DNA of 64,000 nucleotides, taken from the NCBI GenBank assembly GCA_902492325.1, contig CABULC010000002.1, positions 262,411 through 326,410 of the forward strand, written 5' to 3'. Origin of the DNA: an uncultured Clostridium sp. Lineage in GTDB: Bacteria; Bacillota_I; Bacilli_A; RF39; UBA660. The notes beneath the pieces are model-generated. The model did not search any database. It saw only the letters and a program-made list of their open reading frames with translations, and was not told the origin of the DNA. A program made the position numbers and the translations under genes. Positions 2,395-53,640 of the stretch are shown piece after piece; position 1 is the first letter of the stretch, and every line of letters starts with the position of its first letter.

Positions 2395-4080
2395 CTACTT
2401 AAAATTAATATAATTGTTTTTATCAAATGAATTAATATAATTTATTAGTTCATTTTTATATTTTAAATTACGTTTACATATAAATTTTATATCAACAATT
2501 TCTGCTATAGTGTTATTAAGTTCAAATAAGTATTTTTTAACAGTATCATTATATTCATTAATGATATCTTGTCTATTCTTAGATATTTCATATAAGAAAT
2601 ACATAAGCATTCCACCGCCAACAAATATAACAATAATACCTAAATATAATTTTATGAACGCTAAGATCAAACCAACAACAATAAATATCGCACAATATAC
2701 AGTTTTTGGAGAAATATATTGTTGTTCCTGAGAATCTGCTTCGAAAGGCTTTTTAACATATTCTGTTAAAGAATCTTGTAATTCTTTTTCATTACTTCCA
2801 TCTTTTGTAGTTCCAGTCCATTCATTAATTTTTATTTGAATGTCATTATCGTTAGATTCATCCTCATTACCAAATACTTCATCAAAACCTTTGACAATAT
2901 TTTGTTTCGTTAATGAAATAGCTAGTTTTTTTGTAGATAATGAAACATCATCTCTATTTAATATTATATTTGTAAGCTCATTGCCAAAGTTATTTTTAAT
3001 ATTTAATGTGTTATTATATATTTCATATTTTTTATTAGCTTCTTCAACATTTCCTTTGCATTCTATAATTAATTTATTTTTTAATATAGCTTTTCTAAGA
3101 TCAGCTTCATTTTCTTCATAACTAAATAATAAATTATTTAAAAGTTCATCTATACTTTTTTCTTTTTGATCATCTTTATCTAATAATCTTAAGAATTTAG
3201 CATAAGCATTGTTATAAGAGTAGGAAAGAGCTAATTTATTTTTTAGTTTATCAAAATCTTTAACATAGTCGGCAGAAAATGGATATTCACTATTTTCTAC
3301 TACATCAATAGTATCACTAAAAAACTCTCTCCATCTTTCTATTTGATAGTTATTAACATTATCATTACTACTAAGTTTATTACACCAATCATCTATATAA
3401 GAAAGAATCAAATCAGTCATTTTAATACTATAAGCATCATTAACAAGTGATTCTAAAACATTTATAATATCATTATCCATACTATTAGGATTTTGTGTGT
3501 CTAAATATCTTTTTAACCATTTAAGAGCAGTATCATTTCTATTAAGTCTTAGATGTATCAAACAAAAAAGTAATGATGTTTTACTATCATTTAAACTAAG
3601 AGCTTTATTTAGTGCTTTACGAGCTAATTTTCTTTCATTTCTAAACCATGCACATAATGCGACTAATGCATAAGATAAATAATAGTCTGGTGTATTTAAT
3701 AAAGATTGTTCACTTTGAGTAAGCAAAGTATTTTTCTTTATAGTATTTAAATCCATACTATTTAAAATACCATTTATCTTTCTACGAATTAAATCATAAT
3801 GTCCATATTTTTTATTTAGTTCATTTTCTTTTAATAATATTTCATTTTGAGCATTAGATACTAGTGAAGAACCTCTAACTTCTAACATAAAATCTTTTAT
3901 TTCTTGTTCTAAAGATTTAACATTTGTCTTAAGAGTATCTACTTGACTATTAAAATCATTAATTTGCCCGTTAATATCAACAACGTCACCAGCAACACTA
4001 GACATGTTTTCAGATAAAACTTTTAAACTTTTTTCTAGTGCATCCATATCTCTTTTTTGTATAGCAGTTATTGTTGTCAT
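2395..4080 (-). CDS. 561-aa membrane-associated protein. N-terminal coiled coil, TPR-like helical middle region, two-helix TM hairpin (residues ~455-500) and ~60-aa C-terminal tail. First gene of AAA operon
   Basis: ORF with GAGGTGG RBS; hydrophobic segment VYCAIFIVVGLILAFIKLYLGIIVIFVGGGMLMYFLY; stop TAG lies inside RBS of next gene. Confidence 0.7.
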   Translation of the reverse strand: MTTITAIQKRDMDALEKSLKVLSENMSSVAGDVVDINGQINDFNSQVDTLKTNVKSLEQEIKDFMLEVRGSSLVSNAQNEILLKENELNKKYGHYDLIRRKINGILNSMDLNTIKKNTLLTQSEQSLLNTPDYYLSYALVALCAWFRNERKLARKALNKALSLNDSKTSLLFCLIHLRLNRNDTALKWLKRYLDTQNPNSMDNDIINVLESLVNDAYSIKMTDLILSYIDDWCNKLSSNDNVNNYQIERWREFFSDTIDVVENSEYPFSADYVKDFDKLKNKLALSYSYNNAYAKFLRLLDKDDQKEKSIDELLNNLLFSYEENEADLRKAILKNKLIIECKGNVEEANKKYEIYNNTLNIKNNFGNELTNIILNRDDVSLSTKKLAISLTKQNIVKGFDEVFGNEDESNDNDIQIKINEWTGTTKDGSNEKELQDSLTEYVKKPFEADSQEQQYISPKTVYCAIFIVVGLILAFIKLYLGIIVIFVGGGMLMYFLYEISKNRQDIINEYNDTVKKYLFELNNTIAEIVDIKFICKRNLKYKNELINYINSFDKNNYINFK

Positions 4081-4150: not shown

Positions 4151-4579
4151 TTAGTAAAGTTCATTACATACACCAGGGTCAGGAGCATAAAAACAATGTC
4201 CTTTATATCTTCCTGTATTTCTTTGATTAAACCATGTACCTTTACATTCTTCATTTTTCTTAGGTCCATAAAACCATAGTGCATTAGTGGCAGGGTAGTA
4301 ATATTCTCCTTTTAATACTCTTTTAGCAAGTTCTTTTTCTTTTGTAGTAGCACTTCCACTATTAAAAAGACTACTATTTGTTCCAACAAAACCACCTGGA
4401 TTTTGATAAACTACATCAGTAATACTTCTTATATTTTTAAAGTCTAAACAATTAGCTATAGCTCTATTAACTATAACATTTCCAACCATAAGCATGGCAA
4501 GATCACCTTCGGCAAGTGCTTCGGCTCTCATTAGTCTAGCACATAAATCTAATTCTTTAGTTGAATATTTAATAAGCAT
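4151..4579 (-). CDS. SleB/CwlJ-family cell wall hydrolase (spore cortex-lytic-type domain). True start at MLIKYS, not the track start that runs antisense through tRNA-Trp
   Basis: Motifs LCARLMRAEALAEGDLAMLMVGNVIVNRA and VVYQNPGGF; AGGTGA RBS before ATG at 4579. Confidence 0.75.
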   Translation of the reverse strand: MLIKYSTKELDLCARLMRAEALAEGDLAMLMVGNVIVNRAIANCLDFKNIRSITDVVYQNPGGFVGTNSSLFNSGSATTKEKELAKRVLKGEYYYPATNALWFYGPKKNEECKGTWFNQRNTGRYKGHCFYAPDPGVCNELY

Positions 4580-4674
4580 AAAATCACCTAATATATTGTA
4601 TGCAATAACAAAAAATATTGATTTGTTAAAATTTATATAGTATAATAATGTTGCTTTACAAAAAAGTGACACGT

Positions 4675-4749
4675 AGGGGTATGGTGTCAGTGGTAGCATG
4701 CCGGTCTCCAAAACCGTTGGGGAGGGTTCGAGTCCTTCTACCCCTGCCA
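4675..4749 (+). tRNA. trnW: tRNA-Trp (anticodon CCA), 3' CCA encoded
   Basis: Cloverleaf by eye: acceptor aggggta/tacccct, anticodon loop cuCCAaa, T-arm ggttcgagtcc; near-identical to Bacillus tRNA-Trp. Confidence 0.9.
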
Positions 4750-4761
4750 TATAAGATTAAT

Positions 4762-5956: not shown

Positions 5957-7570
5957 ATGAATAAAACAGAGAAAATAGATATCGGAAAAATTGTTTTAAA
6001 TGAAGAGACAAATAAAAAGTTTTTGGATTTCGATAACAATCGAGATATTTTTTATTTTGGAAATAAAGAAGATTATTATTGTAAAGTATACAATTATACA
6101 AGAAAACTAGTTTATAAATCAAGAAATGCAGGAGAAATGATTTTAAATAAATCTTTTGTATCGAATATAATAAGAATATTAAATCACGATGTTCTTATCG
6201 CTAATAAATCAAAAGAAATGGGGTATCTAGAATTATTACACTATTTAATAACTTATCAAGATACTATTAACATTATAAAATTAGGTGGTTATTGGCCATA
6301 TACTGAAGAAGACTCAAATATAAGAAAAGAAGCAATAGAACTTTTAGAAAAACAAAATAATGAAATAGAAGAATTTTTAAAATCAATAGACTATGATAAT
6401 AAAATAAAAGAATTACTTAGTAAGTATAAAGAATATACAACATATAAAGGAGAACTACCTGATGATATATTTTTAGAATTAGATTTGATATTCACAACTG
6501 CTCATAACATACCTAAAGAATATGTTGATTTATATATGAAAAACGTTACTAGCTTTAATAAATCTCTTTCATTAGAAGCTTTTAGAAATGTTATTACAAG
6601 TTTAATTAGTAATTATGCTAAAGAACATGGAACATATTGTTATACTGAAATATGCAAATTAGATTATGGAACATTAGGAAGTTATGATAATCACGTAATT
6701 ACCCTTTCAACATCAAGTTTTAATTCATATTTTTTAGGTCATTCATCAAAGAAAATAGAATTGTTCGACACAATATTCCATGAGTTAATTCATTTGTTAC
6801 AAGATAAGATATATAGATCAAAGTTTATTACTTATGATTATATATTAATGCTTAAAGATTTTTTACTAACAGGTACAATAGAGGAATCATATTTAAAAAG
6901 AAACTATATGAGTTTAACACCAGAAATAGATGCTAGAAAAAATGGCCATTTAGAAACAGATAGTTACCTTCTTTCTTTAGGAATCGCATCACGAACAAAT
7001 ACATTTGAAAAAAATCTATTAGACGAAAGAAGACATGGAACTGATTTTAGATATTACGAAGGAAAAGAATACACAGTAGATACTCTATTAGACGAAAAAA
7101 TGCCTCATGTAGTTGAAGAATTTAAAAAGAATTATAAAATCGATATATTTGAGGAATATCCTGTTATGAAATTAATGTTTCATAATGATGGAAGAAGAAA
7201 AACAACATTAGAATTGTTAAAAGAAAGAGAATCTATAGAAGATAGAGAAATTATTTCGCAAATAGATGAGATTCTAATAAGAAGAAAAATGTCAAAAGAG
7301 AATTGTGAAAAAGATTTAAAAGAGCTTATATTAGATAGTACATTATCGATTGATAAAACAGAATATATTAGAAGACTTAACATGTTATTAACAGCAAAAG
7401 AAAGAAAAAAGATACTAATAAAATTAAAATCACTTAGTTTATTATTAAAAGATTTAGGAAGAAGTTTCTTAATATTCTTAGGTGAACTAGAGGATATAGA
7501 AGCAAGAATTAATGATGAAAAAATAGATATGATTTTATCTAAAAAGATAAATAAAGAATCTAAAAATTGA
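5957..7570 (+). CDS. Hypothetical 537-aa protein with HExxH motif (FHELIHLLQD); possible zincin-like metallopeptidase
   Basis: Long ORF; motif only. Confidence 0.55.
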   Translation: MNKTEKIDIGKIVLNEETNKKFLDFDNNRDIFYFGNKEDYYCKVYNYTRKLVYKSRNAGEMILNKSFVSNIIRILNHDVLIANKSKEMGYLELLHYLITYQDTINIIKLGGYWPYTEEDSNIRKEAIELLEKQNNEIEEFLKSIDYDNKIKELLSKYKEYTTYKGELPDDIFLELDLIFTTAHNIPKEYVDLYMKNVTSFNKSLSLEAFRNVITSLISNYAKEHGTYCYTEICKLDYGTLGSYDNHVITLSTSSFNSYFLGHSSKKIELFDTIFHELIHLLQDKIYRSKFITYDYILMLKDFLLTGTIEESYLKRNYMSLTPEIDARKNGHLETDSYLLSLGIASRTNTFEKNLLDERRHGTDFRYYEGKEYTVDTLLDEKMPHVVEEFKKNYKIDIFEEYPVMKLMFHNDGRRKTTLELLKERESIEDREIISQIDEILIRRKMSKENCEKDLKELILDSTLSIDKTEYIRRLNMLLTAKERKKILIKLKSLSLLLKDLGRSFLIFLGELEDIEARINDEKIDMILSKKINKESKN

Positions 7571-8321: not shown

Positions 8322-8350
8322 ATTAGAGTAACCTAGCGTTACTCTATTTT
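8322..8350 (+). terminator. Terminator
   Basis: gagtaac-ctagc-gttactc hairpin followed by tatttttt. Confidence 0.6.
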
Positions 8351-8368: not shown

Positions 8369-9349
8369 ATGAGTATAATAGAAGTTAAAAACTTATCAAA
8401 AACATTCGAAGTTAAATTAAAAGAAAAAGGTTTAAAAGGAAGTCTTAAGTCAATATTTAAACCTAAGTATAAAACTATTAAAGCTGTTAAGAATATAAGT
8501 TTCAATATAGAAAAGGGTGAAGTTATAGCATTCATAGGACCAAATGGGGCAGGTAAAAGTACTACTATCAAGATGTTAACAGGAATACTTTATAAAGATA
8601 AAGGAACTATTAATATAGATGGTTTAGATCCAGAAAAAGATAGAAAAAAACTTGCTAATGAAATAGGTACTGTATTTGGTCAAAAAGAACAACTATGGAT
8701 GCATCTAACTCCATATGATAACTTTAAATTTTTCGGAGCTATTTATGACATACCAGAATCAATAGTTGAAAAGAAAATAGAAGAATTTAAAGTATTATTT
8801 GAACTAGATGAATTTATAAATACACCAGTACGTAATCTAAGTTTAGGTCAAAGAATACGTTGTGAGATAGTAGCATCACTAATACATGAACCAAAAATAT
8901 TATTCTTAGATGAACCAACTATAGGTCTAGACCCAGTAGTAAAAGAAAATATTCGTACACTTATTAAAAGAATGAACAAAGAATATAAAACAACAATATT
9001 CTTAACAAGTCACGATGTATCAGATATAGAAAAACTATGTAAAAGAGTTATCATAATAAATAATGGTGCTTTAGTACTAGATGATTCAATGGAAAATTTA
9101 AAATACCATTACCTACACAAAAAGATATTAGAAGCTAAAATGAAAGAAAAAGTAAATCTAAATGATGAAGAAGGTATAACTATATTAAAAGATAAAGGAT
9201 ATAACTTGAAAATAGAAGTAGATACTAGTAAACGTAGTATAAGTGATGCTATAAAATTATTAAATCCAGATAATATAATAGATATTAATATATCAAATAC
9301 GCCTCTTGAAGATATAATAAGCGAAATATATAAAAAAGAGGATAAATAA
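8369..9349 (+). CDS. ABC transporter ATP-binding protein (ABC-2 type)
   Basis: Walker A GPNGAGKST, signature LSLGQRIR, Walker B ILFLDEPT; AGGAGG RBS. Confidence 0.9.
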   Translation: MSIIEVKNLSKTFEVKLKEKGLKGSLKSIFKPKYKTIKAVKNISFNIEKGEVIAFIGPNGAGKSTTIKMLTGILYKDKGTINIDGLDPEKDRKKLANEIGTVFGQKEQLWMHLTPYDNFKFFGAIYDIPESIVEKKIEEFKVLFELDEFINTPVRNLSLGQRIRCEIVASLIHEPKILFLDEPTIGLDPVVKENIRTLIKRMNKEYKTTIFLTSHDVSDIEKLCKRVIIINNGALVLDDSMENLKYHYLHKKILEAKMKEKVNLNDEEGITILKDKGYNLKIEVDTSKRSISDAIKLLNPDNIIDINISNTPLEDIISEIYKKEDK

Positions 9350-10140
9350 TGAAAAAGTATTTATTTATATTTAAAACAGAAATAATAAATAGTTTACAAT
9401 ATATGTTTAACTTATTATCAGGCTTTATAGCATACATAATAATGATATATGTATTTTTATGCTTATGGAAATATATGTATAGTGACCCAGCATCTCTTAT
9501 AAATGGTTATAATCTAAATCAAATGATATGGTATATAATTATTACTGAGATATTATGGATGAGCCTAGGTGGTAAAAAAATATGTCGTAAGATAACTAAT
9601 GATGTAAAAAATGGTAACATCGCATATAACATAAATAAACCTTATAACTATATCTTATATAATCTATCTAGCAATTTAGGAAGTATATTCATAAAGTTTA
9701 TAGTATTTACAGTACTAGCTATGATATTAGGATTTATATTTTTAGGAACATTTCCTCAGTTAAATATATTATCTATTTTAGCAGTACTACTTACAAGCAT
9801 TTTAGCAACTACAATAAGTATATTAATAATGATAGGTATAGGTTTATTCTCATTTATAATAGAAGATTCAACACCATTATACTGGGTATATAGTAAATTT
9901 ATATTAGTCTTAGGAACAATATTTCCAATAGAATTCTTTAGTGGAATATTAAGAACAATATTAAAATATAGTCCAATATATGTTGTATCTTATGGACCAG
10001 CTAAATTATTTGTAAACTTTAGTACAAGTGAATTTATAGCAATAATTATTTCACAATTAATATACTTAGTTATATCTTATTTAATAGCTACATTTATATA
10101 CAAGAAAGGGGTGAAAAAACTAAATGTTAACGGAGGTTAA
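9349..10140 (+). CDS. ABC-2 family permease
   Basis: 6-TM hydrophobic ORF, start overlaps ATPase stop. Confidence 0.7.
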   Translation: MKKYLFIFKTEIINSLQYMFNLLSGFIAYIIMIYVFLCLWKYMYSDPASLINGYNLNQMIWYIIITEILWMSLGGKKICRKITNDVKNGNIAYNINKPYNYILYNLSSNLGSIFIKFIVFTVLAMILGFIFLGTFPQLNILSILAVLLTSILATTISILIMIGIGLFSFIIEDSTPLYWVYSKFILVLGTIFPIEFFSGILRTILKYSPIYVVSYGPAKLFVNFSTSEFIAIIISQLIYLVISYLIATFIYKKGVKKLNVNGG

Positions 10141-10918
10141 AAATCAATTAAAAGTAAATTATTTATCTATAAAGTATGGTCTTATGAGAGAAATGGTAAA
10201 TAAGTTTTCATTCTTAGCAAATATAATCTTTATGATTATAAATAACTCATGTTTTATCATACAATGGGTAGTACTTTATTCATTAAAAGATAACATTGGT
10301 GGATATACTTTTAAACAAATGTTATTACTTTGGGGGATCGCAGCAAGTACCTTCGGAGTTTCAAGATTCTTCTTTAAGAAAGCATTTAGTTTATCAGAAA
10401 CAATAAATACTGGTAAATTAGATGCGTTCTTAGTACAGCCTAAAAATGTATTATTAAGTGCAATAACTACTGACGTAGAAGTTTCAGCTATAGGAGACTT
10501 AATCTATGGATATGTAATACTTATCATATATGGAATAACTTTAAAAAACTTTTTATTGTTTACAATATTTACTATATTAGGTGGCCTAATAATAGCTTGC
10601 GTTTCAGTAATAGCAAATAGTCTATCATTTTGGTTTAACATGACAGATGTTTTAGCAGACACAATAAATAACATGATGATAATATTTGGTACATACCCTA
10701 AAGATATATTTAATGGAATAGTAAAGATAATTCTTTATACAATAGTTCCAGTTGGTATCGCAAACTATATACCAATAGACTTAATAATAAACTTTAATAT
10801 ATATGGATTCTTATTAGTATTCACAGTAACAATATTTTTAGTAGTTTTATCATTCTATATATTTAACAAAGGATTAAAAAGATACTCTTCAAGTAACTTG
10901 ATGAGTTCAAGAATATAA
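10124..10918 (+). CDS. ABC-2 family permease (second subunit)
   Basis: Hydrophobic ORF, overlapping previous gene; AGGGGTGA RBS. Confidence 0.7.
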   Translation: MLTEVKNQLKVNYLSIKYGLMREMVNKFSFLANIIFMIINNSCFIIQWVVLYSLKDNIGGYTFKQMLLLWGIAASTFGVSRFFFKKAFSLSETINTGKLDAFLVQPKNVLLSAITTDVEVSAIGDLIYGYVILIIYGITLKNFLLFTIFTILGGLIIACVSVIANSLSFWFNMTDVLADTINNMMIIFGTYPKDIFNGIVKIILYTIVPVGIANYIPIDLIINFNIYGFLLVFTVTIFLVVLSFYIFNKGLKRYSSSNLMSSRI

Positions 10919-10959
10919 TTAATATTAAAGATGAAAAAAGCAATATTAATGTAAAGTAA

Positions 10960-10995
10960 AGGACTAATTATGTAAATTAGTTCTTTTTATGTAAA
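10960..10995 (+). terminator. Terminator of ABC operon
   Basis: ggactaatt-atgta-aattagttc hairpin followed by ttttt. Confidence 0.6.
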
Positions 10996-11060
10996 GAAAA
11001 CCTTGTATTTAATTCTAAAAAAAATATCAATATGATATAATTAATGAGGTGAAAACATAT

Positions 11061-11801
11061 ATGCAAATGTTAGTTAAAGGAGTAAATGTTAATTATACAT
11101 TTTATGATAATAGTAGTAGTATAAACTTAGTTTATCTACACGGCTGGGGCCAAAATATTGAAATGATGATGCCAATAGCAAAACCTTTTATCAAGAAATA
11201 TAATGTATTAATTATTGATTTTCCAGGCTTTGGTGATAGTGATGAACCTAAAGAAGTTTGGAGTGTTTTTGACTATGCAGAAATGGTTAATGAAATGGTT
11301 AAAAAATTAAACATGAAAAATCCTATTGTTATAGGACACTCTTTTGGTGGCAAAATTGCATTAATATATGGTTATAAATATAAACCTAGAAAAGTAGTTG
11401 TACTAGCAAGTCCATATAAACAAGTTATAACAAAACCAACATTAAAAATGAAATTATTAAAACAAGCAAAAAAAATACCAGGACTTGGTAAACTAGAAAA
11501 TTTTGTTAAGAAACATGTTGGTTCAACTGATTATAGAAATGCTAGCGAAATGATGAGAAAAGTATTAGTTGCTCATGTTAATACAGATATTACTGAAGAT
11601 TTAAAGAAAATAAAATGTCCAGTATTAGGTATATGGGGAACTAATGATGCAGCTGTTGATATTGAAGATGGAAGAGAGTTAGAAAACTATATTCCAAATT
11701 ATGGTTTAGTTGAATATCCAGGATGTACACACTACGCATATTTAGAAAATCTAGGTCAAACAATTAGTGTACTTAATAATTTTATTGGAAGTGAGGAGTA
11801 A
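11061..11801 (+). CDS. Alpha/beta hydrolase (esterase/lipase family)
   Basis: Nucleophile elbow GHSFGG, HGWG oxyanion region; start moved to ATG with GAGGTGA RBS. Confidence 0.75.
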   Translation: MQMLVKGVNVNYTFYDNSSSINLVYLHGWGQNIEMMMPIAKPFIKKYNVLIIDFPGFGDSDEPKEVWSVFDYAEMVNEMVKKLNMKNPIVIGHSFGGKIALIYGYKYKPRKVVVLASPYKQVITKPTLKMKLLKQAKKIPGLGKLENFVKKHVGSTDYRNASEMMRKVLVAHVNTDITEDLKKIKCPVLGIWGTNDAAVDIEDGRELENYIPNYGLVEYPGCTHYAYLENLGQTISVLNNFIGSEE

Positions 11802-11802
11802 T

Positions 11803-13401
11803 ATGAGCATTAAAGTATATTTTTTATTAACACTATTAACATATATTTATTATTTAACATACAAATCAAGAAAAGCATTACATATGCTTCAACAAAACTG
11901 GTATAACGATGGCAATAGATATCTAAAATGGGTTAAAACAAATGCTAAAAAAGTATTTATAACATTTGATATGGCATTTATATTATTTTATTTTATGAAG
12001 TTCTTAAATACTAAAGTAACATTAATTATATTTGCAGTATTCTACTTAGTAGTATATTTCTTATATAAAAACAATGCAGTAAAAGAACAATCTAAAAAAC
12101 CATTAGTAGTAACAGCAAGAATTAAAAGACTTTATACTACAATGTTTGTATTGTTAATACTTTGTTTAATACCAATGGTTATACATTTTAATGTTAATAA
12201 CTTGTTTATATATTACTTAATAATTGGTTTATTCTCATATATAAATACAATAGTTATATGGTTATGTAACATTATCAACAAACCGGTAGAGAAAATGGTA
12301 TATCTTCATTATAAAAGACAAGCACAAAGTAAACTTTATAGTATGAATTCTCTTAAAAAAATAGCTGTAACAGGAAGTTATGGAAAAACAAGTACTAAGA
12401 ATGCATTAAATGATATATTAAATGTTAAATATAATTCATTTGCAACGCCTAAGAGTTTCAACACTATGTATGGACTAATAAATGCTATTAACAATTATAT
12501 GGATAAATTTAGTGAAACTTTTGTAGCAGAAATGGGAGCATTCTATAGAGGAGAAATAAAAGAAAAAGCAAACTTTATAAAACCTAAATATGGAATTTTA
12601 ACAATTATTGGAACAGCACACTTAGAAAGTTTTGGTAGTCAGGAAAATATTCAAAAAGCAAAATTTGAATTAATAGATTCACTTCCAGATGATGGAGTCG
12701 CAGTCTTAAATATGGATGATCCATATCAAACAAGTTATAAATTAAAAAGTAAATGCAAAGTAATATGGGTATCAACTAAAAATAAAGATGCTGATGTTTA
12801 TGCAACTGATATAAAACTATCTAACAAAGGAACAACATTTACTTGTATATTTAAAAATACTAAAGAAAAACATACATTTGAAACTAAACTTCTTGGAAGT
12901 GCCAATGTATATAATGTTTTACAAGCAATAGCTATGTCATATGAATTAGGTCTTACTTTAGAACAAATAGCTATCGGAGTAAGAAGAATACAAACTATTG
13001 AACATAGACTTGAACTAAAAAAATACACAGAAAATATTTATATAATAGATGATGCATACAATTCAAACCCAGTTGGTTCTAAAATGGCAGTAGATGTTCT
13101 TAAAATGATGAAAGGTAAAAGAATAATCGTAACACCAGGTATGATAGAACTAGGAGATGAACAATATAGTTCAAACTTCGAATTTGGAAGACAAATAGCT
13201 GGATGTGCAGATGAAGTAATCTTAGTTGGAGAAGAACAAACAAAACCAATTCAAGATGGGCTTAAAAAAGAAAAATATCCTAAATCACAAATACATATTC
13301 TAAATGATGTTAAAGAAGCATTCCCATTAATGAGAAAACTAAGTGACAAAGAAACATATGTATTATTAGAAAATGATTTACCAGATATATTTAATGAATA
13401 G
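11803..13401 (+). CDS. murF: MurF-like UDP-MurNAc-tripeptide:D-Ala-D-Ala ligase whose canonical N-terminal domain is replaced by a ~190-aa five-TM membrane domain
   Basis: Mur ligase P-loop IAVTGSYGKTST and MurF-type C-terminal motif DDAYNSNP; five hydrophobic helices before the ligase core; GAGGAG RBS. Confidence 0.8.
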   Translation: MSIKVYFLLTLLTYIYYLTYKSRKALHMLQQNWYNDGNRYLKWVKTNAKKVFITFDMAFILFYFMKFLNTKVTLIIFAVFYLVVYFLYKNNAVKEQSKKPLVVTARIKRLYTTMFVLLILCLIPMVIHFNVNNLFIYYLIIGLFSYINTIVIWLCNIINKPVEKMVYLHYKRQAQSKLYSMNSLKKIAVTGSYGKTSTKNALNDILNVKYNSFATPKSFNTMYGLINAINNYMDKFSETFVAEMGAFYRGEIKEKANFIKPKYGILTIIGTAHLESFGSQENIQKAKFELIDSLPDDGVAVLNMDDPYQTSYKLKSKCKVIWVSTKNKDADVYATDIKLSNKGTTFTCIFKNTKEKHTFETKLLGSANVYNVLQAIAMSYELGLTLEQIAIGVRRIQTIEHRLELKKYTENIYIIDDAYNSNPVGSKMAVDVLKMMKGKRIIVTPGMIELGDEQYSSNFEFGRQIAGCADEVILVGEEQTKPIQDGLKKEKYPKSQIHILNDVKEAFPLMRKLSDKETYVLLENDLPDIFNE

Positions 13402-13412
13402 GAGAAGTGAAT

Positions 13413-14615
13413 ATGAAAATTAAAGTAGGAGTTATTTATGGTGGAGAAACAGTTGAACATGAAGTAAGTATCATTTCAGCTATTCAAGCAATGAATAATT
13501 TAGATGAAGAAAAATATGAAATAATACCAATATATATATCTAAAGATAGAATATGGTACACAGGACATGTACTAAGAGAAATGGATTTCTATAAACATTT
13601 TGAAGATGAAAAGAAATATGCTAAAGAAGTAACTCTTTGCAAAAAAGGAAAAATGTTTATACTTCAAAAAACCAATGGATTATTTAGAAAAGATATTACA
13701 GATTTAGATATCATTTTACCAGTAGTACATGGTAATAATGTAGAAGATGGAACTTTAGCTGGATTGCTTGATTCGATAGGAATTCCATATGTAGGTTCAC
13801 ACGTATTAGGTTCTGCATTAGGACAAGATAAAGTTGTTATGAAACAAGTAATGTCTTCAGTAGGAATTCCAGTAGTAGATTATACTTGGTTCTTTGATAA
13901 TGAATATCTTGAAAATAAAGATGAAATTCTAGATAAAATTAAAAAACTAGGTTATCCAGTAGTTGTAAAACCAGCAACACTAGGAAGTAGTGTAGGTATA
14001 ACACTAGTACATGATTCTAAAAAGATTGAAGAAGCAATCGAAGAAGCAATTAGTTATGATACTAAAGTAGTAGTAGAAAAAGCTGTAGAAAATTTAGTAG
14101 AAGTAAATGCAAGTGTACTTGGAAACTATGAATATCAAAAAGTAAGTCCATTAGAAGAAGTAATGGGACTTGATGAAATATTAAGTTATGCAGATAAATA
14201 CTTAGGAAACTCTAAAACTAAAGGTGTTAAAACAACTGCATCTAAAGGAATGGCATCTACTAGTAGAATTATTCCAGCAAGAATATCAGATAATTTAACA
14301 AAAGATATTCAAGATACTGCTAAAAATGTATTTAAGACATTAAACTTAAGTGGTGTATGTAGAATAGACTTCTTAATAGATAAAAAAGAAAACAAATTCT
14401 ATGTAAATGAACCAAATACTTGTCCAGGCAGTTTATCATTCTATTTATGGAAAGAAGCAAATGTTAAATATAGAGAACTTCTAGATGAAATGATAAGTAT
14501 TGCTATCAAAGAATACAAAAACAAATCTAAAAAAGTAAAATCATTCAAGAGTAATATCTTAGAAGGATTTAATGGTACTAAAGGTGCAAAAGGTATCAAA
14601 GGATTAAAGAACTAA
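13413..14615 (+). CDS. ddl: D-alanine--D-alanine ligase with omega-loop insertion and ~40-aa K/G-rich C-terminal tail
   Basis: N-terminal signature GGETVEHEVSIISA, ATP-grasp core, omega-loop Tyr retained (SYADKYL). Confidence 0.85.
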   Translation: MKIKVGVIYGGETVEHEVSIISAIQAMNNLDEEKYEIIPIYISKDRIWYTGHVLREMDFYKHFEDEKKYAKEVTLCKKGKMFILQKTNGLFRKDITDLDIILPVVHGNNVEDGTLAGLLDSIGIPYVGSHVLGSALGQDKVVMKQVMSSVGIPVVDYTWFFDNEYLENKDEILDKIKKLGYPVVVKPATLGSSVGITLVHDSKKIEEAIEEAISYDTKVVVEKAVENLVEVNASVLGNYEYQKVSPLEEVMGLDEILSYADKYLGNSKTKGVKTTASKGMASTSRIIPARISDNLTKDIQDTAKNVFKTLNLSGVCRIDFLIDKKENKFYVNEPNTCPGSLSFYLWKEANVKYRELLDEMISIAIKEYKNKSKKVKSFKSNILEGFNGTKGAKGIKGLKN

Positions 14616-14617
14616 AA

Positions 14618-14642
14618 AACAGAGAAAATTCTCTGTTTTTAT
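14618..14642. terminator. Bidirectional terminator between ddl and murI
   Basis: cagagaaaattctctg palindrome flanked by A-run and T-run. Confidence 0.7.
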
Positions 14643-15352
14643 TTGTTATAAATCATTTTAACTTTACCATGAGTAGTAGAGTCACTTAATAAATTATGAC
14701 TTTCTAATTGTCTTTTAACTTGTTTGGATACACCTTTATTACCATCAATAAGCTTAGCCTTTGGAAATAATTCTTTTATATTCTTTTTAGCATGTGGATA
14801 ATGTGTACAACCAAGAACAATAGAATCTATATCTTCATTAACATATTTATCTAATAATTTATGTAATACGTTATTAATATTATCTTTATTACCGCTTTCA
14901 ATCGCATCAGCAAGACCTTTACATGAAAGAAGAGTAATCTTTTGATCTCTTTTCTTATTTAGTTTAACTAATTCATTAGTTCTTTCTGATTTAATAGTTC
15001 CCGGTGTTGCCATGACTAAAGTATTCTTATAATTTTTGTCACAAGCAACTTTAATTGCAGGTTCAGTACCAACAAATATCATATCAGGATACATTTTTCT
15101 AAGTCTATTTATACATCTAGTAGTAGCTGTATTACATGCAATAACAATTATTTTAACTTCTTTACTAATAAGAAAGTCTACTATACCAGTAACTATACTC
15201 ATTAACTCTTCATCACTTTTTTCTCCATAAGGATTATTTTTTGAATCTGCATAATAAATATAGTTTTCATTAGGCAATAATTTTCTAAGTTCTTTTAATA
15301 CAGTTAATCCACCAATACCAGAATCAAACATTCCAATTTTATTATTATTCAT
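14639..15352 (-). CDS. murI: Glutamate racemase
   Basis: MFDSGIGGLTV, IVIACNTAT and GCTHYP motifs; start at second ATG with GAAGGG RBS. Confidence 0.85.
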   Translation of the reverse strand: MNNNKIGMFDSGIGGLTVLKELRKLLPNENYIYYADSKNNPYGEKSDEELMSIVTGIVDFLISKEVKIIVIACNTATTRCINRLRKMYPDMIFVGTEPAIKVACDKNYKNTLVMATPGTIKSERTNELVKLNKKRDQKITLLSCKGLADAIESGNKDNINNVLHKLLDKYVNEDIDSIVLGCTHYPHAKKNIKELFPKAKLIDGNKGVSKQVKRQLESHNLLSDSTTHGKVKMIYNK

Positions 15353-15448
15353 ATACATCCCTTCGTAAACATTATATCACAATTATATACATTTAATGAA
15401 TTTATGGTATAATCAGTATGTATAATAATTGTTAATTAAGGAGTTAAT

Positions 15449-15967
15449 ATGGAAGGCTTAATAAATGGAATTATAAATGCATTTGGAGGAATAACTGCGT
15501 TAAAGTACGGAAAAGAATTAATAGTATTTATTATATCATTGTGTCCAATACTTGAATTACGTGGTGGCCTTATTGCAGCAACACTTTTAGGAGTAAAACC
15601 AGCGGTTGGATATATAGTTTCAATAATAGGAAATACTATACCAGTACCATTTATTTTATTATTCATTGCTAAAATACTTGATTGGATGGAAAAATCGAAA
15701 ATAAAATGGATGAAAAATATAGCAAAATGGTTAAGAAATAAAGCACATAAAAATAGAGAAAAAATTGATAAATATGGATATTGGGGATTATTACTTTTTG
15801 TAGGAATACCACTTCCAGGAACAGGTGCATGGACAGGATGCTTAGTAGCAAGTGTATTTGATATGGATAGAAAAAAGTCATTCTTTGCAGTTATGTCTGG
15901 AATAATAATGGCTAGTATTATTATGATGATTTTATCTTATGGACTATTAGGTGGAATAATTAATTAA
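15449..15967 (+). CDS. Small membrane protein (COG2426 / small multidrug export-like)
   Basis: Hydrophobic ORF with LELRGGLIAA motif; AAGGAG RBS. Confidence 0.45.
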   Translation: MEGLINGIINAFGGITALKYGKELIVFIISLCPILELRGGLIAATLLGVKPAVGYIVSIIGNTIPVPFILLFIAKILDWMEKSKIKWMKNIAKWLRNKAHKNREKIDKYGYWGLLLFVGIPLPGTGAWTGCLVASVFDMDRKKSFFAVMSGIIMASIIMMILSYGLLGGIIN

Positions 15968-15979
15968 GGAGGCTTTCAT

Positions 15980-16747
15980 ATGGATTTATCTATACTTATA
16001 CTATCAATACTTCCAGTATATTTACTAAATAGATATATAAATAGTAAAGATTCAGAAAAAGAACCAAAAGAGTTATTAAAAAAATTAACTAAAGGTGGAA
16101 TTTATGCAGCTTTATTAACAATTATAATTTCACTATTCTTACCACTAATATCCCCAGCACTTGATGCAACTAGAACAGAAGTAATGAATCCTGTAGAACT
16201 ACTTATTTATGCTTTTATAGGTGTAGCTTTAGTAGAAGAATCATGTAAATATTATTTTGTACATAAATATACATATAATAATAGAGAGTTTGACTATCTA
16301 TTTGATATGATTGTATATGCTACATATGTGTCACTTGGTTTTGCATTATTAGAAAACCTTATTTATGTAATAACAGGTGGAATATATGTGGGTCTGCTAA
16401 GAGCAATTACAGCTATACCAATGCATGCATGTACAGGTGTAATGATGGGACATTTTTTAGGAGAAGCTAAATATAATGAAATAAATAAAAAAAGTGCTAA
16501 AAAGAATAAAATTCTAGCACTATTAGTTCCAATACTCATGCATGGAGCATATGATTATTCTGCACTTAGTGGTCACACATTAGTATTTATCATCTTGATT
16601 ATAACTTTTATTTATATATCAATAGATTTAGTTAATAAAAAAAGTAGAAATGATATTAAAATACAAAGAAAATATGATTATTGTCCAAAGTGTGGAACCA
16701 AAATAGTAGGTAACTTTTGTACAAATTGTGGAAAAAAAGCAGAATAA
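15980..16747 (+). CDS. PrsW-family intramembrane protease with C-terminal zinc-ribbon (CPKCG...CTNCG)
   Basis: Motifs EESCKYYF, MHACTG, HGAYDY; AAGGAGG RBS. Confidence 0.65.
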   Translation: MDLSILILSILPVYLLNRYINSKDSEKEPKELLKKLTKGGIYAALLTIIISLFLPLISPALDATRTEVMNPVELLIYAFIGVALVEESCKYYFVHKYTYNNREFDYLFDMIVYATYVSLGFALLENLIYVITGGIYVGLLRAITAIPMHACTGVMMGHFLGEAKYNEINKKSAKKNKILALLVPILMHGAYDYSALSGHTLVFIILIITFIYISIDLVNKKSRNDIKIQRKYDYCPKCGTKIVGNFCTNCGKKAE

Positions 16748-17467
16748 TTATTTTAAATCTTTAAATACATTTTTAAATTCATCATTAATTACTAGAGATG
16801 CAATACTATCATAAGAAGTTGCATCTCTATTTATTATGACTAAATTTTTACCTCTAAATAGTCTTACTAAACTACTAGCAGGTTCAACTGTTAAAGAAGT
16901 TCCTGCTACTATTAAAGTATCACATTTAGATAAAACTTCTATTGATCGATTTAATGTATATTCATCAAGCATCTCTCCGTATAATACAACATCAGGTTTT
17001 ACAAGACTTCCACATTCACATAAAGGAATATCTTTAGAATTAAATACATATTCAGCATCATAGAATTTATGACATTTAATACAATGATTTTTATATATAG
17101 TTCCATGCAGCTCAAGTACATTAGTACTCCCTGCTTTAGTATGTAAACCATCAATATTCTGGGTAACTATCGCTTTTAGTTTTCCCATCTTTTCAAGTTT
17201 AACCATATATTTATGTATTATATTAGGCTCAACATTCAAACAGTTTAATTTATCTTTATAAAATTTATAAAATTCACTAGTATTATGATAGAAAAAGCCA
17301 CTACTTAGTATTAATTCAGGTGGAAACTTATATTTCATATTATAAAGTCCATCTTTACTTCTAAAGTCTTTAATGCCACTTAAAGTAGACACTCCAGCTC
17401 CACTAAAAAATACTATATTATTAGATTCATCTATTATTTTTTGTAATTTATTTATCTTTTCTTTCAT
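16748..17467 (-). CDS. cobB: NAD-dependent protein deacylase (sirtuin, CobB/Sir2 family)
   Basis: GAGVSTLSGIKDFRS, TQNIDGLH, Zn-binding CxxC...CxxC. Confidence 0.85.
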   Translation of the reverse strand: MKEKINKLQKIIDESNNIVFFSGAGVSTLSGIKDFRSKDGLYNMKYKFPPELILSSGFFYHNTSEFYKFYKDKLNCLNVEPNIIHKYMVKLEKMGKLKAIVTQNIDGLHTKAGSTNVLELHGTIYKNHCIKCHKFYDAEYVFNSKDIPLCECGSLVKPDVVLYGEMLDEYTLNRSIEVLSKCDTLIVAGTSLTVEPASSLVRLFRGKNLVIINRDATSYDSIASLVINDEFKNVFKDLK

Positions 17468-51774: not shown

Positions 51775-52287
51775 ATGAATTTAGAAAGTATTTTAACAAG
51801 TGAAAATATTGAAGAAGAAATAAGAAGTAATGAAGAATATATATTTATGTTAATACCTGAACTTAAAAGTGAAGTAGGGTTTGATCAAAAACATCCTCAT
51901 CATTCATTTGATGTTTGGAATCATACTATCGAAGCATTAAAGCATATTGAACCAGATTTTGAACTTAGACTTATAGTATTACTTCATGATATAGGTAAAC
52001 CATTTAGTTATCAAGATGGAGAAGATGGAGTAAGACATTTTAAAGGTCATCCAAAAAAATCAAAAGAAATAGCAGAAGATATATTAACAAGATTAAATAT
52101 AGAACCAAAAGAAGAAATACTTTATATTATAGAAAATCATGATACACCTATAGATACTAATAATATTAAAAATAGAGAATTAGAAATAAAAAGATTGAAG
52201 GTACAATATGCTGATGCTTATGCACATGCTCCTTCAACCATTCAAAAACGTATTTTAAGACTTAATGCTATAAAAGAATTAATTTGA
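51775..52287 (+). CDS. HDIG-domain phosphohydrolase
   Basis: HHSFDVWNH...LLHDIGKP. Confidence 0.7.
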   Translation: MNLESILTSENIEEEIRSNEEYIFMLIPELKSEVGFDQKHPHHSFDVWNHTIEALKHIEPDFELRLIVLLHDIGKPFSYQDGEDGVRHFKGHPKKSKEIAEDILTRLNIEPKEEILYIIENHDTPIDTNNIKNRELEIKRLKVQYADAYAHAPSTIQKRILRLNAIKELI

Positions 52288-53640
52288 TTTATAATTTAAT
52301 ACTTCTTCAGCATCATCTAAATGTATTTTTTCTCTACCAATTATTTGATAATCTTCATGTCCTTTACCAAGTATTAATAAAATATCATCTTTTTCCATAA
52401 TATCAATACCATGTTTAATAGCTTGTCTTCTATCTAAGATAACTTCATAGTTATCTTTTTTAACACCTTCTAGTATATCATTCATAATAGCTTGTGGATC
52501 TTCAGTTCTAGGGTTATCACTAGTGAAAATTACATAGTCAGATAATCTACTAGCAATTTCTCCCATGATAGGTCTCTTCTTAGGATCTCTATCTCCTCCA
52601 CAACCAACTATAGTAATTACACGATTCTTTTTAAGCTCATTATATGCAGTAATAACTTTTTCTACAGCATCTGGTGTATGAGCATAATCAATAACAGCAA
52701 CACCACCATTAACTTTATATGCTTCACATCTACCTTTAGGTGCTTTTATCATACTAGTTTTACTAACAATTTCATCTATACTAAATCCATATTGGTTAAG
52801 AATAGATACAACAGTTAAATAGTTATAAACATTAAACTTACTAGTAAGTGGAACTAACACATCATAAGATTTACCTTCAAAACTGAATGTAAGATTTGTT
52901 TCACTTGGATGAGTTTCAAAATTAATAATTTTATAGTCTCCATTAAATCCAAAAGAAACTCTTTTGTGTCCTTCTTTTTTAAAATGAACACTTGCTTCAT
53001 CATCAGAATTAACAATTATGATAGCATCCTTAGTTAAATGATCAAGTATTAATAACTTAGCATTTAAATAATTTTCCATAGTCTTATGATAATCTAAATG
53101 ATCTTCAGTTAGATTAGTAAATCCAATAATTGAATAATTTACATTAGTAAGTCTATCATAAGATAAAGCTTGACTACTTACTTCCATAACTACTGTTTTA
53201 GCTCCACTTTCATATGCGTTCATAAGAAGTTTATAAACAGTTAATATATCAGGAGTAGTATTATTAAGTTCAATATGCTCATCTTTATGATAATAACCAA
53301 TAGTTCCAATATAAGCAGCATCTACACCCATGTTAAGTAACATTTGATAAGTTAAATAACAACTAGTAGTCTTACCATTAGTACCAGTAACACCAATAAG
53401 TTTCATTTCATTTAACTTTTCACCATATTCTTTATTAAGAATTTCTCTTAAATATTTATCAGTATCTTCAACTTTTTCATAAGGAATATCAAAGTCAATA
53501 TCCTTTTCACAAATAATTTTAGATGCTCCATTCTTAATAGCGCTTTCTATAAAATCATGACCATCTACAGTTAAACCTTTTAAAGCGATAAAAGTTTGTC
53601 CTTTTTGTACTTTTCTAGAATCACTTTCAAATTTAAACAT
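52279..53640 (-). CDS. murE: UDP-MurNAc-L-Ala-D-Glu:meso-DAP ligase MurE (DNPR motif)
   Basis: GVTGTNGKTT, FTSDNPRTEDP. Confidence 0.9.
   Translation of the reverse strand: MFKFESDSRKVQKGQTFIALKGLTVDGHDFIESAIKNGASKIICEKDIDFDIPYEKVEDTDKYLREILNKEYGEKLNEMKLIGVTGTNGKTTSCYLTYQMLLNMGVDAAYIGTIGYYHKDEHIELNNTTPDILTVYKLLMNAYESGAKTVVMEVSSQALSYDRLTNVNYSIIGFTNLTEDHLDYHKTMENYLNAKLLILDHLTKDAIIIVNSDDEASVHFKKEGHKRVSFGFNGDYKIINFETHPSETNLTFSFEGKSYDVLVPLTSKFNVYNYLTVVSILNQYGFSIDEIVSKTSMIKAPKGRCEAYKVNGGVAVIDYAHTPDAVEKVITAYNELKKNRVITIVGCGGDRDPKKRPIMGEIASRLSDYVIFTSDNPRTEDPQAIMNDILEGVKKDNYEVILDRRQAIKHGIDIMEKDDILLILGKGHEDYQIIGREKIHLDDAEEVLNYKSN

Follow-up and report, generated by a model that had tools for sequence, protein, structure and literature searches.

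MurF is regarded as a soluble, universally three-domain and essential enzyme, and as an antibiotic target. Natural fusions of Mur enzymes have been described (MurE-MurF, MurC-Ddl and MurD-FtsW; PMC10214165), and an accessory murF lies in the vanI cluster of Desulfitobacterium (PMC4229326). The word 'transmembrane' is absent from the survey of natural fusions (PMC10214165), and we found no paper on a MurF with a membrane domain, on a hydrolase-MurF-Ddl operon or on sporulation paralogues, although such an absence is not proof. For RF39, a pathway of the meso-diaminopimelate (mDAP) type has been reported 'with steps missing', the steps not being named (PMC10868615), and the supplement of that report holds nothing on murF, K01929, K01921 or K01928. 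Here we analyzed a stretch of 64,000 nucleotides (hereafter the window) from an uncultured Clostridium sp. assigned to RF39 (assembly GCA_902492325.1, contig CABULC010000002.1, positions 262,411 to 326,410). It encodes a MurF-family ligase, denoted TM-MurF, with a predicted five-helix membrane domain where canonical MurF has its N-terminal, substrate-recognition domain (domain 1). The gene is flanked by those for an alpha/beta hydrolase and a D-alanine-D-alanine ligase (Ddl), and the three are referred to below as the triad.

A MurF-family ligase with an N-terminal membrane domain

The TM-MurF gene and its parts are as follows (aa, amino acids; TM5, the fifth membrane helix).

11803 to 13401, plus strand: TM-MurF, membrane-anchored MurF-family ligase of 532 aa (open reading frame, Pfam, NCBIfam, homologues, hydropathy, alignment with 1gg4, AlphaFold2 and Foldseek)
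11803 to 12267, plus strand: N-terminal five-helix membrane domain, aa 1-155, predicted to have its N-terminus outside and loops 21-49 and 89-109 inside
11881 to 11904, plus strand: loop-1 motif H-M-L-Q-x-N-x-Y, aa 27-34 (at least 90% conserved in an alignment of 94 sequences, as are R39 and W43)
12094 to 12132, plus strand: loop-2 motif K-K-x-L-V-x-T-x-R-x-x-R-L, aa 98-110 (same alignment)
12268 to 12354, plus strand: linker helix, aa 156-184, from TM5 to the P-loop strand (AlphaFold2 helix 148-180 and alignments)
12367 to 12936, plus strand: Mur ligase central (ATP-binding) domain, with P-loop GSYGKTS at aa 191-197 (12373 to 12393; PF08245 and 1gg4 alignment)
13003 to 13365, plus strand: Mur ligase C-terminal domain, with DDAYNSNP at aa 416-423 (PF02875 and alignments)
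13369 to 13386, plus strand: family-specific invariant C-terminal motif E-N-D-L-P-D, aa 523-528 (family alignments)

Profile searches matched Pfam Mur_ligase_M (PF08245) to aa 189-378 of TM-MurF (1.8e-40) and Mur_ligase_C (PF02875) to aa 401-521 (3.8e-11), and the segment GSYGKTST (aa 191-198) fits the P-loop pattern G-x-x-G-K-T/S. Among the NCBIfam models, TIGR01143 (murF) scored best, with 232.4 bits versus at most 94 bits for the MurE, MurC and MurD models. The best PDB sequence match was E. coli MurF (1gg4; 1.7e-36), residue 101 of which pairs with residue 185 of TM-MurF, and the best Foldseek matches of the TM-MurF model were all MurF (4qf5, 1gg4 and 4cvk; ~360 aligned columns). The P-loop and residues E243, H273, K287, N303, D305, D417 and N420 are invariant in the family and kept relative to canonical MurFs; those of the central domain presumably represent the metal-binding Glu and His, the conserved Lys and the N-x-D element. 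Judging from these comparisons, the central and C-terminal domains are complete, with their catalytic residues intact, as had been stated in a preliminary description of the locus, which also pointed out GSYGKTST and DDAYNSNP. The catalytic part shares 41-49% identity with one Bacillaceae and one Clostridia triad member and about 32% with the canonical MurFs of Bacillus and Monoglobus; for the family, identity to these canonical enzymes is about 30-35%. TM-MurF scored 26 bits against the MurT model NF052464 (cut-off 800), DUF1727 was not found in the Pfam and NCBIfam searches, and no PgsB, CapB or CapC family was among the Pfam or NCBIfam matches at E <= 0.01.

The canonical N-domain (PF01225) was not found in TM-MurF by Pfam profile search, and tblastn with canonical MurF N-domains gave no match in the TM-MurF reading frame. 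Positions 71-402 of the TIGR01143 profile align to aa 181-521 only, and five hydrophobic segments lie upstream, within aa 3-155. The central claim of the preliminary description, that a five-helix membrane domain replaces the MurF N-domain, is thus borne out.

The same description had left room for a true start downstream of the hydrophobic region, behind a separate membrane-protein gene. What we found is a single reading frame of 532 codons, running from the ATG at 11803 to the stop at 13399-13401 with no stop inside; a GAGGAG ribosome-binding site lies 5-6 nt 5' of the ATG, and the stop codon of the hydrolase gene ends 1 nt short of it, so that stop and start abut. Full-length homologues are 518-541 aa long with a query coverage of 100%, and thousands of clusters (90% identity) have equal length and the same coverage. 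Since these homologues cover the entire query, the start is correctly placed, and the hydrophobic region and the ligase belong to one gene. Within the assembly collection, 118 index blocks contain the exact protein, the contigs being up to 496 kb long; ERZ27287454 and ERZ15609870 of ENA are examples of metagenome-assembled genomes that encode it. Furthermore, a search with the N-terminal 184 aa against 1.84 billion representative proteins matched 474 proteins, of which 150 were listed. Nearly all of the matches listed align from the first ~10 residues; the full-length ones among them are 518-541 aa long and the remainder are apparently contig-end fragments. Thus, among the matches listed, the membrane domain occurs nowhere but at the N-terminus of this ligase.

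Some matches to the N-terminal region were short (50-390 aa), which could be read as a sign that a sequencing error or a wrongly assigned start had fused a membrane-protein gene to a 5'-truncated murF. However, the short matches begin at residue 1-10, and two of them (P0132 and P0205) reach the P-loop region of the ligase before the break; two others (P0123 and P0127) end within the linker helix, where we assume truncation. The same architecture and length recur in hundreds of independent assemblies, including the complete isolate genomes CP002394.1 (Evansella cellulosilytica), CP032416.1 (Clostridium fermenticellae) and NZ_CP174509.1 (Pseudalkalibacillus), and the full-length AlphaFold model is confident. 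An artefact of this kind is extremely improbable, and a split gene or wrong start is ruled out by the single reading frame, the ribosome-binding site, the full-length homologues and the N-domain matches.

Structure and predicted topology of the membrane domain

A hydropathy scan delineated five hydrophobic segments (approximately aa 3-20, 50-66, 71-88, 110-128 and 134-155), which AlphaFold modelled as helices with a predicted local distance difference test (pLDDT) score of ~92. For full-length TM-MurF, AlphaFold2 run on the alignment of 94 sequences gave a pLDDT of 91.9 and a predicted template modelling score of 0.84, with helices at aa 3-31, 55-67, 70-94, 105-127 and 131-146 and a long helix (148-180) leading into the P-loop strand. 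This linker helix opens with a conserved N-x-x-N-x-P-x-E motif (N156, N159, P161 and E163) and, in the alignment with canonical MurFs, stands where domain 1 has its last helix. A structure search found no relative of solved structure for the five-helix bundle.

In the alignment of 94 sequences, the helices and the two short turns are variable, with no position 90% conserved save L110, at the start of helix 4. Apart from that residue, conservation in the N-terminal domain is confined to the start of the linker helix and the two long loops, namely H27, M28, L29, Q30, N32, Y34, R39 and W43 in loop 21-49 and K98, K99, L101, V102, T104, R106 and R109 in loop 89-109. The net charge is +6 in each of the long loops and 0 in the short turns. 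From these values, the positive-inside rule predicts that the N-terminus is outside and that the conserved loops, like the ligase domains, are cytoplasmic. Five Clostridia members (P0443, P0444, P0445, P0450 and P0452) are only ~500 aa long, ~38 aa shorter. They may be without the first helix, in which case their predicted topology would differ.

Twelve of the conserved residues (K98, K99, R106, R109, R39, H27, Q30, Y34, W43, N156, N159 and E163) would lie at the predicted cytoplasmic membrane interface. Together with the absence of domain 1 by every profile and the elaborateness of a five-helix bundle without a solved structural relative, they lend some weight to the idea that TM-MurF adds D-Ala-D-Ala to inward-facing lipid I- or lipid II-tripeptide, the carrier being undecaprenyl-diphosphate instead of uridine diphosphate (UDP). 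In this case, the basic loops would bind the pyrophosphate of the lipid, rather than UDP, at the surface of the membrane, and the dipeptide would come from the dedicated Ddl. The hydrolase might trim damaged or wrong stem peptides to the tripeptide, and stem peptides would in this way be completed or repaired at the membrane. A precedent, to our knowledge, is MurT, which is without domain 1 and acts on lipid II. However, the helices carry no conserved residues and hence offer no obvious specific lipid-binding site. Moreover, if TM-MurF were the sole MurF of RF39-like genomes, routine transfer of the tripeptide by MraY would be required, yet the MraY of a relative is an ordinary TIGR00445 member. 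A lipid-linked substrate, as raised in the preliminary description, is plausible and is the main rival of the reading preferred below, though the less likely of the two.

Distribution of TM-MurF and conservation of the triad

The distribution of the architecture, a survey of which had been proposed, turned out to be wide: in a scan of one genome per GTDB species, relatives were confirmed at at least 460 places. The closest relatives are encoded by gut and rumen metagenome-assembled genomes labelled Bacilli, Tenericutes or Mycoplasmatota and by Clostridium sp. CAG:1000, a set that we take to be the RF39 group. TM-MurF was also found in cultured Bacilli (Pseudalkalibacillus, Evansella cellulosilytica, Salipaludibacillus, Gracilibacillus, Alteribacillus and Paenibacillus) and in Clostridia (Caloramator, Clostridium fermenticellae, Caloranaerobacter, Anaerosalibacter and Thermoanaerobacterium). 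In cultured organisms, NCBI names the family MurF or 'Mur ligase family protein'. The sequences are thus already public, labelled simply as MurF, and what they have lacked is recognition as a family. No full-length match was found in 72,556 plasmid records. Relatives were also observed in metagenome-assembled genomes labelled Balneolales, Syntrophobacterales, Synergistetes and Poribacteria (L077 and L066; P0488, P0491 and P0504) and in bins labelled Muribaculaceae, Bacteroides and Porphyromonadaceae (L011, L013, L021, L052, L065, L067, L069, L073 and L075). Horizontal transfer may account for these off-lineage labels; for the Bacteroidales ones, mis-binning is the probable cause.

The partner genes of TM-MurF in the window and the elements that bound the triad are the following.

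11049 to 11801, plus strand: alpha/beta-fold serine hydrolase, first triad gene (Abhydrolase_1, 2.7e-25)
13407 to 14615, plus strand: long D-Ala-D-Ala ligase (Ddl), third triad gene (Pfam and NCBIfam NF002528)
10958 to 10986, plus strand: terminator-like hairpin after the ABC-2 permease gene, a 12-bp stem followed by UUUUUAU (RNA fold and sequence)
11033 to 11041, plus strand: TGATATAAT, putative extended -10-like promoter element (TGnTATAAT) just 5' of the hydrolase gene (consensus match)
14615 to 14640, bidirectional: terminator-like hairpin separating ddl from murI, which converges on it

When the window proteins were searched by tblastn in 80 loci kept from the species scan, the gene directly upstream of TM-MurF encoded the alpha/beta hydrolase at 67 of 74 loci, and the one directly downstream encoded Ddl at 68 of 73; among the 68 loci having both flanks, 62 contained the full triad. 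The median gaps between matched segments were 29 nt (hydrolase to TM-MurF) and 16 nt (TM-MurF to Ddl). The TM-MurF of the window possesses all family motifs (HMLQxNxY, KKxLxxTxRxxRL, NxxNxPxE, GSYGK and ENDLPD) and has both flanking partners.

The hydrolase probably starts at the ATG at 11061 (246 aa), preceded by GAGGTG at 11046-11051, and not at the listed GTG at 11049; a hydrolase gene of the same sequence is annotated as 246 aa in L085-L087. Its Ser98/Asp200/His228 residues and its HGWG oxyanion and GSxDY motifs are invariant in 7 orthologues, and no signal peptide is evident in it.

For Ddl, the probable start is the ATG at 13413, giving 400 aa. The protein scored 301.8 bits with NF002528, above the cut-off of 262; its best matches are D-Ala-D-Ala ligase models, and it stays under the cut-off of every Van model. 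It keeps the omega-loop pair K264-Y265, presumably a mark of D-Ala-D-Ala ligases. We compared the Ddl of the window (13407-14615) with those of L053:11587-12798, L061:11643-12824, L081:11574-12785 and L082:11595-12767 and with a canonical Bacillus Ddl. Triad Ddls are 391-410 aa long, versus about 360 aa as usual, and contain a Gly/Lys/Ser-rich insertion of 10-15 aa with a conserved ASKGM right after the omega-loop Lys-Tyr as well as a C-terminal tail of ~35 aa ending in G-x-K-G-x-K; in the alignment, both the insertion and the tail are absent from the canonical Bacillus Ddl. Identity is 43-49% within the triad Ddls versus 35-38% to the canonical enzyme. By these measures, the Ddl linked to TM-MurF is a distinct subtype, and the two triad ligases co-evolve, each in its own clade. 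Such a separation from the canonical enzymes compared, and the impression that the triad is an extra module in Bacillales and Clostridium, would also fit TM-MurF acting on a lipid carrier.

The triad in the window is apparently its own transcription unit, with promoter and terminator. The hairpin upstream of it (10958-10986) folds with -10 kcal/mol (z = -3.46), a value reached by 0 of 200 shuffles. The genes upstream (8369-10918) encode an ATP-binding cassette (ABC) ATPase and two ABC2_membrane_6 permeases, with a terminator-like hairpin on either side (8324-8346 and 10958-10986). Among the loci compared, these ABC-2 exporter genes adjoin the triad in this species only and, thus, are probably an independent operon. 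The exporter was rejected as a triad member, given the intervening hairpin and promoter-like element and its absence upstream in other species. Accordingly, of the neighbourhood put forward in the preliminary description, the hydrolase and ddl are real and conserved companions of TM-MurF, but the adjacency of the exporter is coincidental. Rfam searches found no regulatory RNA upstream of the triad.

Genomic context in RF39-like and other genomes

Two further genes of the window bear on the pathway.

14639 to 15358, minus strand: glutamate racemase MurI, convergent neighbour and pathway partner outside the triad (TIGR00067, 197.7 bits, cut-off 146.65)
52279 to 53640, minus strand: canonical cytosolic MurE of the mDAP type with a normal N-domain (NF001126, 506.9 bits, cut-off 373; PF01225 present)

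The murI gene also adjoins the triad in L001-L003 and L061. Among RF39-like loci, L005 has the order ezrA-xerC-murE-hydrolase-TM-murF-ddl-parE, L029 carries murE directly downstream of the triad (tblastn), L012 has murE and mraY near TM-MurF, murC neighbours the triad in L042, and mraY-ftsW does so in L083. L012 also differs in its arrangement: two MurE-type genes (12427-13839 and 15648-16970), both above the mDAP-ligase cut-off and with an amidase between them, lie near TM-MurF, and the triad hydrolase and ddl are not adjacent to it.

In profile searches of the window, MurE was the sole Mur ligase besides TM-MurF and a second MurF was not detected; tblastn with canonical MurF N-domains found there only the N-domain of MurE itself. 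The same queries in ~85 related loci, which make up a small part of each genome, matched MurE N-domains and two reference loci only. Candidates for a second murF in the related loci were rejected, the extra ligase matches being MurC, MurE or cyanophycin synthetase. The window also encodes a class A penicillin-binding protein (PBP), and its 28.6-32.9 kb block, considered as a division and cell wall (dcw) cluster, proved not to be one. No vanX or vanY, vanH or vanT, or vanRS was found near the TM-MurF gene of the window.

Outside the RF39-like genomes, the surroundings of the triad include peptidases and spore-related genes. A VanX-like M15 dipeptidase gene follows ddl in L053, L054, L060 (12945-13658) and L082 (12795-13499), and an M19 dipeptidase gene does so in Clostridium fermenticellae (L090:13078-14061); in the Pseudalkalibacillus locus L053, a class B PBP follows (dipeptidase/PBP region 13101-16805). 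In four loci from Clostridia (L056, L057, L059 and L061), the triad is immediately preceded, at about 7.3-8.9 kb, by ypeB, a gene of spore germination, and gerA-type germinant-receptor operons are found nearby in a Clostridiaceae locus (L061:2701-6528) and a Paenibacillus locus (L082:891-4409). A link of the triad to sporulation or germination is possible.

These neighbourhoods suggest that canonical ddl and murF might reside elsewhere in the genome, with the triad providing a second, condition-specific pathway to a pentapeptide or an alternative dipeptide, for instance in sporulation or germination, under cell-wall stress or for a terminus other than D-Ala-D-Ala as in van clusters. The isolated triad operons of cultured Bacillaceae, Paenibacillus and C. 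fermenticellae, the dipeptidases, PBP, ypeB and gerA genes just described, and the insertion beside the omega loop of the triad Ddl, which could alter specificity, all speak for such a role, and extra murF genes are known in van clusters (PMC4229326). A canonical ddl-murF-helicase locus is present in B. thuringiensis (L088), and by analogy triad-bearing Bacillaceae may likewise have a standard ddl-murF pair. However, in the window and its RF39-like relatives the triad adjoins no dipeptidase, vanH, vanRS or PBP gene; its neighbours there are murI, murE, murC and mraY among housekeeping genes, and two MurF/Ddl pairs would be unexpected in small, reduced genomes. The triad Ddl, moreover, keeps the Lys-Tyr pair and scores best with D-Ala-D-Ala ligase models, and a scan upstream of six triads, admittedly a weak test, found no match to sporulation-sigma motifs. 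For the window, an accessory role of the triad is unlikely. The notion in the preliminary description of a specialised module rather than a housekeeping enzyme holds insofar as the triad is a distinct, co-evolving unit and an isolated operon in Bacillaceae, Paenibacillus and Clostridium, but does not extend to the RF39-like triads, which sit among housekeeping wall genes.

Three large open reading frames of the window (2395-4080, 561 aa; 5957-7570, 537 aa; and 58704-60458, 584 aa) have no Pfam match, and a 561-aa reading frame without a Pfam match also follows ddl in L083 (13182-14867). A tRNA gene (48.6 bits, 4675-4746, plus strand) lies inside the listed minus-strand reading frame 4151-4750, the 5' part of which is therefore probably not coding.

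Proposed function of the Ddl and TM-MurF pair

The interpretation that we tentatively prefer, granting it slightly less than an even chance, is that Ddl and TM-MurF are the working D-Ala-D-Ala synthesis and addition pair of this small RF39-like genome, acting at the membrane. The triad Ddl would make D-Ala-D-Ala, the canonical MurE would supply UDP-MurNAc-L-Ala-D-Glu-mDAP, and TM-MurF would join the dipeptide to this UDP-MurNAc-tripeptide at the inner membrane face, such that the pentapeptide would be released beside MraY. The task of domain 1, holding the diphosphate-sugar end of the substrate, would fall to the two basic loops on the cytoplasmic side and to the N-x-x-N-x-P-x-E motif that opens the linker helix. 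In this scheme, we infer the substrate, the topology, the role of the loops and the status of TM-MurF as the sole MurF. The catalytic residues are invariant, and MurF is the best match by profile, sequence and fold; furthermore, the location of RF39-like triads beside murI, murE, murC and mraY-ftsW, and a window MurE that would give the mDAP tripeptide, fit a working MurF/Ddl pair.

Several observations count against this assignment. The TIGR01143 score of TM-MurF (232.4 bits) is under the cut-off of 288.6, a shortfall consistent with the 70 profile positions that are missing, and TM-MurF has ENDLPD where the two canonical MurFs compared have K-(A/G)-S-R-G-M. TM-MurF and the triad Ddl fall into clades distinct from the canonical enzymes with which they were compared (two MurFs and one Ddl). 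The Mur-ligase relatives without domain 1 that are known to us (MurT, PgsB/CapB, FPGS, cyanophycin synthetase and CfbE) all use non-UDP substrates, and a five-helix domain conserved over hundreds of species exceeds the needs of a tether. The triads of Bacillaceae, Paenibacillus and Clostridium form isolated operons in unrelated surroundings, away from the usual wall genes and at times with an M15 or M19 dipeptidase, which suggests a non-redundant function there. Finally, the hydrolase is conserved and catalytically intact and is without a role in the textbook pathway. None of the readings explains it convincingly, and its strict conservation is the strongest sign of a triad activity beyond the textbook reaction.

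Whichever substrate is used, TM-MurF represents a large family of different MurF design, in which the substrate-recognition domain is swapped for an integral membrane domain. Its carriers include abundant RF39-like Bacilli of the human and animal gut, many cultured Bacillaceae and Paenibacillaceae, and Clostridia, and its gene shares an operon with a dedicated, structurally modified Ddl and a serine hydrolase unneeded by the textbook pathway. If TM-MurF is the sole MurF of RF39-like genomes, the last cytoplasmic step can be membrane-bound, which may explain the steps reported 'missing' in pathway reconstructions of the RF39 lineage (PMC10868615). If, instead, the substrate is lipid-linked or the triad is a second pathway in spore-formers, it would constitute a new branch of peptidoglycan precursor synthesis in many Firmicutes, with a bearing on susceptibility to D-cycloserine and glycopeptides. 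The family is easy to test, since cultured carriers with complete genomes are available.

Comparison with known Mur ligase systems

As regards a lipid substrate, the best precedent is MurT, which forms the lipid II isoglutaminyl synthase with GatD. Like TM-MurF, MurT is a member of the Mur-ligase family without domain 1, and it acts at the membrane stage, on a lipid-linked precursor. However, MurT is a soluble protein that depends on GatD, and its C-domain is DUF1727, whereas the C-domain of TM-MurF is MurF-like. The poly-gamma-glutamate synthase PgsB/CapB, with its partners PgsC and PgsA, resembles TM-MurF in being a Mur-ligase-like, ATP-dependent amide ligase with an N-terminal hydrophobic membrane segment, and the substrate of PgsB is non-UDP. 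It differs in having a single anchor and separate membrane subunits, whereas TM-MurF has MurF-like catalytic domains and neighbours a hydrolase and Ddl.

The MurF of van clusters is a second MurF beside a Ddl-type ligase and a D,D-dipeptidase, an arrangement that the Bacillales triads with an M15 peptidase after ddl resemble; the window, in contrast, is without vanX, vanH and vanRS, and the triad Ddl keeps the Lys-Tyr of the D-Ala-D-Ala type. In the natural Mur fusions, as in TM-MurF, Mur enzymes are physically coupled to neighbouring pathway steps, including a membrane protein in the case of MurD-FtsW. However, the fusions keep full domain sets, whereas TM-MurF has one domain replaced, and its membrane part is no recognisable pathway protein.

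Relative to canonical MurF (TIGR01143, EC 6.3.2.10; 1gg4, 4cvm and 4qf5), TM-MurF is without domain 1 and has the five-helix membrane domain and linker helix instead. Compared with the two canonical MurFs aligned, it has GSYGK as its P-loop, TPGMIELG for DMLELG and ENDLPD for K-(A/G)-S-R-G-M, and its gene order is hydrolase-murF-ddl versus ddl-murF. Nevertheless, the gene adjoins ddl, as in the B. thuringiensis locus L088, TM-MurF retains the P-loop and the conserved Glu, His, Lys, Asn and Asp residues, and its central and C-terminal domains match those of canonical MurF in both sequence and fold.

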